Of a stretch of DNA of 64,000 nt, positions 20,824 through 42,051 are shown one piece after another. Location of the stretch: NCBI RefSeq assembly GCF_055900595.2, contig NZ_CM148325.1; one strand, given 5' to 3'. Below the pieces are notes generated by a model. The model was not told where the DNA came from. It saw only the letters and a list, made by a program, of their open reading frames with translations, and ran no database searches. Within the stretch, counting starts at the first letter, position 1. Each line of letters begins with the position of its first letter. The position numbers and the translations under genes are program-made.

Positions 20824-20839
20824 TGGCATAAGACCTGCA
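20824..20839 (+). promoter_or_regulatory. Sigma-54 (-24/-12) promoter of argT
   Basis: TGGCAT-N5-CTGCA with GG and GC 12 nt apart, about 70 nt upstream of the argT ATG; argT is a known NtrC/sigma-54 target. Confidence 0.7.
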
Positions 20840-20906: not shown

Positions 20907-21689
20907 ATGAAGAAGTCGATTCTCGCTCTGTCTTTGTTAGTCGGGATTTCCGCAGCAGCTTCCAGCTACGCGGCGCTGCCGGAGACGGTACGTATCGGAA
21001 CGGATACCACCTATGCACCGTTCTCATCGAAAGATGCCAAAGGTGACTTTGTTGGCTTTGATATCGATCTCGGTAACGAGATGTGCAAACGGATGCAGGT
21101 GAAATGTACCTGGGTTGCCAGTGACTTTGACGCGCTGATCCCCTCACTGAAAGCGAAAAAGATCGACGCCATTATTTCGTCGCTTTCCATTACCGATAAA
21201 CGTCAGCAGGAGATTGCCTTCTCCGACAAACTGTACGCCGCAGACTCTCGTCTGATTGCTGCCAAAGGTTCACCGATTCAGCCAACGCTGGATTCACTGA
21301 AAGGTAAACATGTGGGTGTGCTGCAGGGATCAACCCAGGAAGCGTATGCCAATGATAACTGGCGCAGTAAGGGTGTCGATGTGGTGGCCTATGCTAACCA
21401 GGATTTGGTCTATTCCGATCTGGCTGCAGGACGCCTGGATGCCGCTCTGCAAGATGAGGTTGCTGCCAGCGAAGGTTTCCTCAAGCAACCTGCCGGTAAA
21501 GATTTCGCTTTTGCAGGCCCTTCAGTGAAAGACAAAAAATACTTCGGTGACGGCACCGGTGTCGGGCTACGTAAAGATGATGCTGAACTGACGGCTGCGT
21601 TTAATAAGGCGCTTGGCGAGCTGCGTCAGGACGGCACCTACGACAAGATGGCGAAAAAGTATTTCGACTTTAATGTCTACGGTGACTGA
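20907..21689 (+). CDS. argT: Lysine/arginine/ornithine-binding periplasmic protein
   Basis: 260-aa ORF with signal peptide and about 70% identity to the adjacent hisJ paralogue. Confidence 0.93.
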
Positions 21690-21906
21690 TACGTCGCAGG
21701 GAAGCTGTACCTGATGGAATGATCATGGTGCACGCCAGGTTTGTTGCACTATCGTGGTGCATTAAAATGCATACTTAAGCATTTTTAATGAAAAATAATA
21801 CGTCTAACGGGGCGGGATATTTTGCCTTGATGGTCAATTTTATGGCACGATAAGTGTAACAAACCTGTAAATATTCCCTATAAAAAGACTGTCAGTTGAG
21901 GACATT

Positions 21907-22689
21907 ATGAAAAAACTGGTGCTATCGCTCTCTCTGGTTCTGGCCTTCTCCAGCGCAACGGCGGCGTTTGCTGCGATTCCGCAAAACATCCGCATCGGTA
22001 CCGATCCGACCTATGCGCCATTTGAATCAAAAAATTCACAAGGTGAACTGGTTGGCTTCGATATCGATCTGGCGAAGGAATTGTGCAAACGCATCAATAC
22101 GCAATGTACGTTTGTCGAAAACCCGCTGGATGCGTTAATCCCGTCCTTAAAAGCGAAGAAGATTGACGCCATCATGTCATCGCTTTCCATTACGGAAAAA
22201 CGTCAGCAGGAAATTGCCTTCACCGACAAACTGTACGCTGCCGACTCTCGTCTGGTAGTGGCGAAAAATTCCGATATTCAGCCGACAGTCGAGTCGCTGA
22301 AAGGCAAGCGCGTAGGCGTATTGCAGGGCACCACCCAGGAGACGTTCGGTAACGAACACTGGGCACCAAAAGGCATTGAAATCGTCTCTTATCAGGGGCA
22401 GGACAACATTTATTCTGACCTGACTGCCGGACGTATTGATGCCGCATTCCAGGATGAGGTCGCCGCCAGCGAAGGTTTCCTCAAACAACCCGTTGGTAAA
22501 GATTACAAATTCGGTGGCCCGTCTGTTAAAGATGAAAAACTGTTTGGCGTAGGGACCGGCATGGGTCTGCGTAAAGAAGATAACGAATTGCGCGAGGCAC
22601 TGAACAAAGCCTTTGCCGAAATGCGCGCTGACGGTACTTACGAGAAATTAGCGAAAAAGTACTTCGATTTTGATGTTTATGGTGGTTAA
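21907..22689 (+). CDS. hisJ: Histidine-binding periplasmic protein
   Basis: 260-aa ORF with signal peptide [22 protein letters not shown], followed by hisQMP. Confidence 0.93.
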
Positions 22690-22778
22690 TCGCCATCGGT
22701 GAAAGAAAGCCCGCTCCCTTCGGGTAACCGGAGGGAGACAAGAGGCGGTAATTCACCACACACGACAGGACAGGCAGC

Positions 22779-23465
22779 ATGTTGTATGGGTTTTCAGGTG
22801 TTATTTTACAGGGTGCGCTCGTCACGCTGGAGCTGGCTATCAGCTCTGTAGTGCTCGCTGTAATCATCGGTTTAATTGGCGCTGGCGGTAAGCTCTCGCA
22901 AAATCGGCTTTCGGGCCTTATTTTCGAAGGCTACACCACGCTGATTCGTGGCGTGCCGGACTTGGTGTTGATGCTGCTGATTTTCTACGGTTTGCAGATT
23001 GCACTAAACACGGTGACGGAGGCGATGGGCGTCGGGCAGATTGATATCGATCCGATGGTCGCTGGTATTATTACTCTCGGTTTTATCTACGGTGCTTATT
23101 TTACCGAAACGTTCCGTGGCGCGTTTATGGCTGTGCCGAAAGGGCATATAGAGGCGGCGACGGCGTTCGGTTTTACTCGTGGGCAAGTGTTTCGGCGGAT
23201 CATGTTTCCGGCGATGATGCGTTACGCCCTGCCAGGCATTGGCAACAACTGGCAGGTGATTCTCAAATCTACCGCTTTGGTTTCGTTACTCGGCCTGGAA
23301 GATGTGGTCAAAGCCACGCAACTGGCAGGCAAAAGTACCTGGGAACCGTTCTATTTCGCCATCGTCTGTGGCGTGATTTATCTGGTTTTCACCACCGTTT
23401 CCAATGGTGTGCTGCTGTTCCTTGAGCGCCGCTACTCCGTGGGTGTGAAGAGGGCTGACCTGTGA
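22779..23465 (+). CDS. hisQ: Histidine ABC transporter permease
   Basis: 228-aa polytopic ORF with ABC permease EAA-type loop. Confidence 0.92.
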   Translation: MLYGFSGVILQGALVTLELAISSVVLAVIIGLIGAGGKLSQNRLSGLIFEGYTTLIRGVPDLVLMLLIFYGLQIALNTVTEAMGVGQIDIDPMVAGIITLGFIYGAYFTETFRGAFMAVPKGHIEAATAFGFTRGQVFRRIMFPAMMRYALPGIGNNWQVILKSTALVSLLGLEDVVKATQLAGKSTWEPFYFAIVCGVIYLVFTTVSNGVLLFLERRYSVGVKRADL

Positions 23466-41135: not shown

Positions 41136-42051
41136 GAATCTTGACCTTTTTTGCTGTTATCGCCACTCCCTGCCGTGGAAGTCAGCTTAGAACAATGTAC
41201 TCCCCCAGGACGGCGTTTTGAAGGTCTGCAGAATAAGATTTTGCCAGAGGGGAAGACTCGATTGTGCTGTTAATAACTTAATAATGGCAAAATAATGAGG
41301 TGTATATGCTTAGTAATTAATGTTATGTAGTGAATTGTTCTGATTCTTAATTGTGAGTGTGGTTTTTTTATCTGTAAGATAATTGTTTGAAAATGCCTCG
41401 TTTAAGAATTCACTAATGAATCGTGATGATGATATTTCCGCATTACGGAGAGTTTAACAGCGTGATGATTTCCGAGGTGTCGTAATGGGTGCAAGGTGTG
41501 AAACTATTGTTAAGCGGGATTAATGAATGAGGATGATGCTAATTAATTATTATTTAATATTCAAAAAGGTTTTGTTGTGCTTATTAATAATAGAAGATTA
41601 CTTTGCCTAACATAACATAACTTTGCATCAGATAATTCGCAATGACCCTTATAAATAAAAGGTTTTTGGGGTAAAATGCTCGCATAAATGACGGATCCCT
41701 GCTCTTGATGCCGCCTCACCATTGCTGTTTGTACGTGTTCGCGTATGACCAGCGATGCTGCACGAGAGTGGAACAAGGACTCACATTTACATTTATACAA
41801 ACACGCGCATGTCATAAATACAAAAGAGTGAGTAACTTAATAGATATGCGATTCCTGAAGATATATTCTGTGATCTACTTCAGGCATTATAACGGAACAA
41901 TGTGAGTCGCTTTTTTAGTGCAACTCATATGCATTTTTACTTTCGTCCGGGTTCCGGATGAAACTGCCAGGGAGGCACATTACAAATGGAATTGCTTGTT
42001 TGTGTGTGCACAGCATTAACCAGCTCAGTACGAGCCGCCAGTAAGTGATAA

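Follow-up and report, generated by a model that had tools for sequence, protein, structure and literature searches.

The AT-rich palindromic block upstream of hisJ in Escherichia coli is very probably the ArgR operator of hisJQMP

The stretch of DNA analysed here (“the window”) comprises 64,000 nucleotides of an E. coli genome and contains the genes purF, ubiX, argT, hisJ, hisQ, hisM and hisP in this order, all on the + strand. The argT-hisJ spacer of 217 bp, carried by 5421 out of 5426 complete genomes of E. coli, is home to an AT-rich block at 21757-21792 with the ATG of hisJ (21907) 115-150 nt downstream. The coordinates of the genes, of the regulatory elements within the spacer and of its inverted repeats are collected in Table 1. 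Upstream of argT, the sequence TGGCATAAGACCTGCA (20824-20839) represents the known sigma-54 promoter of this gene; the same sequence is found in published E. coli sigma-54 ChIP-seq data and in Salmonella.

Table 1. Features of the argT-hisJ region, with positions numbered along the window.
Feature	Position	Strand	Description
argT	20907-21689	+	ORF, gene 5' of the spacer
Distal NtrC half-box GGAATGATCATGGTGCA	21716-32	.	E. coli keeps only the right half GGTGCA, 21727-32
Long inverted repeat I1, left arm CAGGTTTGTTGCACTATCGTGGT	21736-58	+	pairs with 21844-67; overlaps most of the NtrC box
Proximal NtrC box TGCACTATCGTGGTGCA	21745-61	.	0 mismatches to TGCACY-N5-GGTGCA; overlaps the block at 21757-61
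ARG box A GGTGCATTAAAATGCATA	21756-73	.	15.9 bits, rank 1 of ~64,000 18-mers in the window; contains palindrome 1
ARG box B1 AATGCATACTTAAGCATT	21766-83	.	13.3 bits, rank 4 in the window; conserved ArgR box
ARG box C TAAGCATTTTTAATGAAA	21776-93	.	11.6 bits, rank 7 in the window; 2-bp spacer (CT) from box A
ARG box B2 AATGAAAAATAATACGTC	21787-21804	.	7.8 bits, rank 26 in the window; canonical 3-bp spacer (TTT) from B1
Conserved hairpin GTCTAACGGGGCGGG, loop ATAT, TTTGCCTTGATGGTC, then AATTTTAT	21802-35	+	arms 21802-16 / 21821-35
TTGCCT, presumed hisJ sigma-70 -35	21822-27	+	TTTGCC invariant in 49 orthologs; 17 bp from B2 fits the account in PMC6640053
Sigma-54-type element TGGCACGATAAGTGTA	21843-58	+	2 mismatches to TGGCACGNNNNTTGCW; -24 GG intact, -12 GC is GT
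Long inverted repeat I1, right arm GGCACGATAAGTGTAACAAACCTG	21844-67	+	covers the core promoter
CACGAT, presumed sigma-70 -10	21846-51	+	within the sigma-54-type element
hisJ CDS, regulated gene, first of the histidine/arginine transport operon hisJQMP	21907-22689	+	ORF and translation; matches K-12 hisJ b2309

The block reads gtgcattaaaatgcatacttaagcatttttaatgaa. A preliminary description of this DNA had pointed to overlapping inverted repeats upstream of hisJ, and these are present as described. They comprise a perfect palindrome of 6+2+6 nt, TGCATTAAAATGCA (21758-71, hereafter palindrome 1), a perfect 8-nt inverted repeat formed by CATTAAAA (21760-67) and TTTTAATG (21783-90), and a further inverted repeat of AAAATGCATA and TAAGCATTTT that is 90% complementary. 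Palindromicity by itself is weak evidence in AT-rich DNA, because 28 of 400 Markov simulations of the spacer yielded at least two perfect 6+6 palindromes; the two that are found in its 217 bp are thus only marginally above chance.

ArgR sites were scored with a symmetrised 18-bp matrix built from 20 boxes of 10 K-12 operators (carA, argF, artJ, artP, argA, argG, argR, argD, argE/C and argI), with hisJ left out. The training boxes scored 8.4-22.6 bits, and TGCAT emerged as a common variant of the TGAAT half-site. We take the boxes of the matrix to match the classical ones of argF/argI, carAB, argR, argECBH, argA and argD. A weight-matrix scan had been proposed in the preliminary description, and with ArgR it yields four ARG-like boxes at the block (A, B1, C and B2; ranks 1, 4, 7 and 26) and places the three best tandem pairs of the window there as well. 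The highest-scoring pair is A+C (21756 + 21776, 2-bp spacer) with 27.4 bits, followed by B1+B2 (21766 + 21787, 3-bp spacer) with 21.2 bits and by 21756 + 21777 (3-bp spacer) with 18.0 bits; outside the hisJ block, the best tandem pair of the whole window reaches 15.0 bits. Both the pair with the 3-bp spacing of tandem ARG boxes and the pair with the 2-bp spacing known from the argR operator therefore top all other pairs in the window. The starts of the four boxes (21756, 21766, 21776 and 21787) are about one helical turn apart, which puts all half-sites on the same face of the helix, and the boxes lie 102-150 nt 5' of the hisJ ATG. With 21-27 bits, the pair scores at hisJ just reach the lower end of the range for the biosynthetic operators (27-41 bits) or fall short of it.

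To relate these scores to local composition, the 61-bp block with its 30% GC was shuffled 5000 times with dinucleotides preserved. None of the 5000 shuffles reached the 27.4 bits of the best pair, three reached 21.2 bits at 3-bp spacing and five contained four boxes of at least 7.5 bits; pure chance or AT-richness is thereby ruled out as the source of the ArgR match. Counting matches to the IUPAC consensus WNTGAATWWWWATTCANW, which fits 21756-73 with three mismatches, is uninformative on its own (nine matches in the window versus 6.8 expected). Elsewhere in the window, two overlapping AT-rich 18-mers at 41541-41565 have the second and third best single ARG-box scores (14.5 and 14.0 bits) and no tandem partner; their ARG-like scores are probably compositional.

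ArgR has been studied at this control region in K-12, and what is said here about binding and repression by ArgR, as about occupancy by NtrC, comes from that literature, while the sequence match, its statistics, the conservation and the architecture were computed in this work. According to the brief account in PMC6640053 (citing Caldara 2007), the control region of hisJ contains two 18-bp ARG boxes with a 3-bp gap between them, which arginine-bound hexameric ArgR occupies in footprints; the distance from this site to the -35 further downstream is 17 bp. The same account calls repression of hisJ by ArgR in vitro weak yet direct, and ascribes it not to steric exclusion but probably to a conformational change of the DNA induced by ArgR. 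A ChIP-exo study gives one ArgR peak-pair at hisJ (PMC4381063), and deletion of argR leads to higher activity of a hisJ promoter reporter (bioRxiv 10.1101/2024.03.30.587424). The K-12 form of palindrome 1, TGCATTGAAATGCA, was listed in 2008 as a putative ArgR motif (PMC2585105), and this prediction is the sole match of a literature search with the literal sequences of the block.

The preliminary description had named ArgR, Nac or another dimeric regulator as possible owners of the block, had advised a comparison with mapped sites and had regarded the lack of any regulator footprint as evidence to the contrary. According to these papers, published ArgR footprints and a ChIP-exo signal fall on the same K-12 control region, and an ArgR footprint has been published for K-12 hisJ itself (PMC6640053 citing Caldara 2007). 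ArgR is hence borne out as the candidate, by the best ARG-box cluster of the window together with footprints, ChIP-exo and argR-dependent repression in K-12. The notion of a dimer on one palindrome gives way to a hexamer on two tandem 18-bp boxes. From the one-line description of the published boxes we infer that their register most likely corresponds to 21766-83 and 21787-21804, because exactly 17 bp separate the end of B2 from the invariant TTGCCT (21822-27), the presumed -35. B1 is then probably the published upstream ARG box, and B2 probably the downstream one.

For a comparative analysis, 80 hisJ loci were retrieved from Enterobacteriaceae, nearly all of which keep the argT-hisJ synteny, and 79 spacers were aligned. 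Conserved blocks are GGTGCA (21727-32), TGGTGCA (21755-61), TGCATA.TTAAGC (21768-80; 80-90% conserved), ATG.AAAA (~21788-95), TTTGCCTT (21821-28) and TGGCACGATA (21843-52). No such conservation is seen for ATTAAAA (21761-67), the centre of palindrome 1. Of the possible box starts, 21766 alone has a median ArgR score above zero in the orthologs (8.6 bits, with at least 8 bits in 64% of 74), and in 51 of the 79 species the best pair begins at its equivalent, the second box ending at a constant 100-107 bp from the ATG. Box A occurs in 5% of the aligned orthologs and in Escherichia only. Box B2 is weakly conserved as an ARG box (median -0.6 bits), and other genera carry ATGCAAAA in its place. Judged by the alignment, then, the evolutionarily conserved box is 21766-83 (TGCATACTTAAGCA) and not the more conspicuous TGCATTAAAATGCA. 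The expectation that the palindrome should be conserved in orthologous promoters accordingly holds for the core box, while palindrome 1 itself is specific to Escherichia. In the TGCATAsTTAAGC core, the non-consensus bases A13 and G14 are retained with a strictness that the matrix does not demand, so that a second constraint may act on it.

The Buttiauxella loci (L031-L038 and L043) are without the conserved TGCATAsTTAAGC block. In the region aligned to ~21830-21870, their best ARG-like pair, for example TATGCATAAATTGGCATG and CATGCAATTTTATCCGGT separated by AAA, coincides in part with the TGGCAT-type sigma-54 promoter, so that the operator may be placed differently in this genus.

At its left end the block runs into the proximal NtrC box. 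This box is the only match to TGCACCNNNNTGGTGCA with at most one mismatch on either strand of the 64-kb window, all others having three mismatches. Its right half, GTGCA, is also the left arm of palindrome 1, and the NtrC box shares 6 bp with box A. The distal GGTGCA is at least 90% conserved in the 79 orthologs, and other genera have a full distal box, such as TGCACTGATGTGGTGCA, centred ~153 bp from the -12 C. Together with ATCGTGGTGCA, the distal half-box forms a direct repeat. Measured against an enhancer of at least two boxes spaced by about three helical turns, the second element (21716-32) has retained only GGTGCA, and the spacing is 29 bp in the window; an additional CAT makes it 32 bp in K-12. 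An NtrC ChIP-seq peak at 2424941-2425021 (23.7-fold) has been assigned to hisJQMP (PMC4066584). Using the +1978 shift between K-12 genome versions, which we checked against the argT sigma-54 site, this peak maps to ~21699-21776 of the window, with the proximal NtrC box beneath it. Nitrogen control, another option of the preliminary description, stands insofar as an NtrC box adjoins and overlaps the operator, but it is not an alternative to ArgR.

Other genera carry a canonical sigma-54 promoter, TGGCACGATAACTGCA, with NtrC-like boxes at distances of ~153, 124 and often 102 bp from its -12 C. The proximal box of Escherichia lies 104 bp from the -12, and ~20 bp, or two helical turns, are absent between it and the conserved ARG box. 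The long form of the spacer, which is found in Salmonella, Citrobacter, Enterobacter, Klebsiella and Kosakonia, is by parsimony probably the ancestral one. Because these ~20 bp are absent in Escherichia, palindrome 1 is, on the comparison of spacers, a lineage-specific junction of the right half-site of the NtrC box with the left half of the conserved ARG box.

In each of the six Escherichia sequences, the sigma-54-type element reads GT and not GC at -12; both GG and GC are present in 61 of the 79 orthologs. Within it, TGGCACGATA is 70-99% conserved across the 79 orthologs and the T at 21857 only ~10%. A sigma-54 promoter of the form GG-N10-GC is thus not found downstream of the NtrC box in the window, in which the count of sigma-54 consensus matches is uninformative on its own (100 versus 127 expected). 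For K-12, sigma-54 ChIP-seq (PMC4591121) and RpoN gSELEX (PMC8743547) both report the argT promoter and no site at hisJ. A strong NtrC ChIP-seq peak without a sigma-54 site at hisJ raises the question of the route by which NtrC acts on E. coli hisJQMP; routes considered are read-through from argT, a residual sigma-54 promoter, and a remote enhancer that serves argT.

We infer a sigma-70 promoter for hisJ with TTGCCT as -35 and CACGAT as -10; a scan for consensus promoters and terminators yielded no sigma-70 promoter at threshold, and the one terminator-like site, at 21801-14, was weak. In published evolution experiments, repeatedly selected up-mutations of hisJ comprise a SNP at -86 to any base, a deletion at -78 and an insertion of AATT at -71 (bioRxiv 10.1101/2024.03.30.587424), and a further published up-mutation, GC-to-TT at -62/-61, destroys the -24 GG. 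They map to 21821, 21829, 21836 and 21845-46, all downstream of the block and none in the ARG boxes. Those at -86, -78 and -71 flank the presumed -35 and are located in the 3' arm and the U-tract of a hairpin. The 3' arm of this hairpin (21821-35) contains the invariant TTTGCC and overlaps the presumed -35. Minimum-energy folds from many genera contain the hairpin, with outer stems that differ in sequence and show compensatory changes across 49 orthologs. In an alignment of 49 sequences, its partners pair in 74.3% of the cells versus 38-48% for slid partners, and its covariation score is 0.262 versus 0.085-0.142, a value reached in none of 500 shuffles. It may be a terminator or an attenuator of argT. 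The Term-seq files examined from PMC7815308 give 3' ends in the argT 5'UTR and ORF and none in the argT-hisJ spacer.

The long inverted repeat I1 brackets the ArgR operator. Its core of 15 nt is 93% complementary and extends to 22 bp in the RNA fold; a repeat of this kind appeared in one of 400 simulations and is specific to Escherichia, where the right arm replaces the canonical -12 region (AACTGCA-CC...) of other genera. As RNA, the spacer folds with -73.4 kcal/mol versus -49.0 +/- 4.2 for shuffles (z = -5.8), dominated by the 22-bp stem of I1. We rejected the strong z-score as an Escherichia-specific signal, the median of the orthologs being ~ -4, and regard stable folding as common to the spacer in general. 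The palindromic NtrC boxes are mutually complementary and could account for part of the stability. Rfam gave no match at an E-value of at most 1 over 21500-22900.

Within E. coli, 5421 out of 5426 genomes have the 71-bp stretch of NtrC box and operator (21736-21806) with an identity of 98.5% or more. Only 26 of the 5421 are identical to the window over this stretch, and only 16 of the 5421 reach 99% identity over the entire spacer. The window differs from K-12 by an A instead of G at 21764, in the centre of palindrome 1, with which box A scores 15.9 bits compared with 10.1 bits in K-12. The 3 bp CAT are absent at ~21725, and the two ATCNTGGTGCA repeats are spaced by 29 and not 32 bp.

Taken together, the block is with high probability the ArgR operator of the hisJQMP promoter, a real operator that has already been characterised in K-12 and whose binding by ArgR is predicted for the allele of the window. 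Other readings of the same bases have to be weighed against it. The block might mainly be architectural, with an intrinsic bend or an IHF-type site that helps NtrC at 21716-61 to loop to the sigma-54-type promoter at 21843-58, its likeness to ArgR sites being secondary. Its place between the NtrC boxes (in most genera centred ~102, 124 and 153 bp away from the -12 C) and the conserved TGGCAC-N5-TGCA promoter would suit such a role, as would the A/T tracts AAAA, TTTTT and AAAAA, which are roughly one helical turn apart, and ArgR repression is itself attributed to a conformational change of DNA in the account of PMC6640053. We nevertheless consider this reading unlikely. There is no IHF consensus (WATCAR-N4-TTR), the best match in 21740-21812 having three of nine specified positions wrong, as in 3.7% of the positions of the window; the conserved bases are the ARG positions T3, G4, A6, T7, A12, C15 and A16 and not the A-tracts; and in Escherichia the GC at -12 is lost, with no sigma-54 binding reported at K-12 hisJ. 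An architectural role would, moreover, be compatible with binding of ArgR. That the block extends the NtrC enhancer with additional low-affinity TGCA...TGCA sites is very unlikely, even though TGCA recurs at 21758, 21768 and 21778, the interval of the ChIP-seq peak reaches ~21776 and other genera have a third NtrC-like box just upstream of the conserved TGCATA block. The half-sites of TGCAT-N4-ATGCA are spaced 3 bp more closely than those of the NtrC dyad TGCAC-N7-GTGCA, 21762-21810 is without a match to the NtrC consensus at up to three mismatches, and the two 18-bp boxes described in PMC6640053 (citing Caldara 2007) were footprinted with ArgR and not with NtrC.

A further idea is that the inverted repeats act as RNA, as a hairpin of CAUUAAAAUGC and GCAUUUUUAAUG in the argT 3'UTR or in a read-through transcript from argT to hisJ. 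The fold of the spacer is stronger than that of shuffles in the window and in orthologs alike, a local hairpin is seen in the minimum-energy folds of several Escherichia sequences, and we found no strong terminator between argT and the block. The hairpin is AU-rich and weak, however, in other genera ~24 bp interrupt its 5' arm ATTAAAA, which is not conserved, Rfam holds no match, and the conservation of sequence fits a protein site better than base pairing, so that we regard an RNA role as extremely unlikely. To Nac, a LysR-type regulator named in the preliminary description, we assign next to no probability as the owner of the block. The sequence ATACTTAAGCATTTT (21771-85) fits ATA-N9-TAT with one mismatch, and hisJQMP is nitrogen-regulated; but the motif has only six specified positions, its TAT half reads TTT in the window and differs among orthologs, and binding of Nac at hisJ was not reported in the literature examined. 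This candidate of the preliminary description has therefore been dropped. For Lrp (four of 15 positions wrong), CRP (five of 10 wrong) and the LysR-type core, too, the block contains no convincing consensus match.

In the favoured reading as an ArgR operator, an arginine-loaded ArgR hexamer would bind a pair of 18-bp ARG boxes, most likely in the canonical register 21766-83 + 21787-21804, and would partly repress the sigma-70 promoter of hisJ just downstream. Repression would be weak because the boxes sit upstream of the -35, and in the view of the literature, as summarised in PMC6640053, it would come about through distortion of the DNA by ArgR and not through steric exclusion of RNA polymerase. 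Escherichia would have a second register at its disposal, 21756 + 21776 with a 2-bp spacer. The 5 bp at the left end of the block would at the same time serve as the right half-site of the consensus NtrC box at 21745-61, as part of the nitrogen-control enhancer of the locus.

For the evolution of the arrangement we offer a tentative scenario, which we think more doubtful than probable. In Escherichia, the loss of ~20 bp might have fused the NtrC box to the ArgR operator and created box A, resulting in competition between ArgR and NtrC. Together with the loss of the GC at -12 and the gain of the 22-bp repeat, control of hisJ might have shifted from a sigma-54/NtrC promoter that carries an ArgR site to a sigma-70 promoter at which arginine and nitrogen signals meet in one composite site, with the rare A allele strengthening the ArgR side.

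Control of hisJQMP by ArgR and binding of NtrC upstream of it are already known in K-12, and a reading of the bare sequence has here picked out a genuine, experimentally mapped operator. The comparison across genera adds that the ancestral box would be 21766-83, that the obvious palindrome is a lineage-specific junction at which an NtrC half-site meets half of an ARG box, and that the canonical -12 element of sigma-54 promoters, present in other genera, has been lost in Escherichia. Competition between ArgR and NtrC and the route of nitrogen control to E. coli hisJQMP arise from it as testable hypotheses.

Among known systems, the closest is the hisJ operator of K-12 (Caldara et al. 2007, J Mol Biol 373:251, as cited in PMC6640053), which is the same locus and differs by one base in 71 bp. 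In both, two 18-bp ARG boxes with a 3-bp spacer precede a sigma-70 -35, with weak repression reported for K-12 in that account; the window, in contrast, has the rare A at 21764 and is without the CAT between the NtrC half-boxes. The classical operators of argF, argI, carAB P2, argECBH, argA, argD, argG and argR share with hisJ the design of the boxes, the TGAAT/TGCAT-N4-ATTCA/ATGCA consensus and the 21-bp spacing of the box centres. Their boxes overlap the -35 or the -10, however, and their pairs of 27-41 bits go along with strong repression, whereas the boxes of hisJ lie upstream of the -35, reach 21-27 bits and repress weakly. Salmonella dhuA/hisJ is said to have been presented by Ames and Nikaido in 1985 as an example of an NtrC enhancer with a sigma-54 promoter. 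With the NtrC/sigma-54 architecture of the glnAp2 type, the hisJ locus has in common one or more 17-bp TGCACY-N5-GGTGCA dyads 100-150 bp 5' of TGGCAC-N5-TTGCA. Escherichia hisJ departs from this type in that the -12 is GT, only half of the distal box is left, ~20 bp are absent and the sites of NtrC and ArgR overlap by 6 bp.
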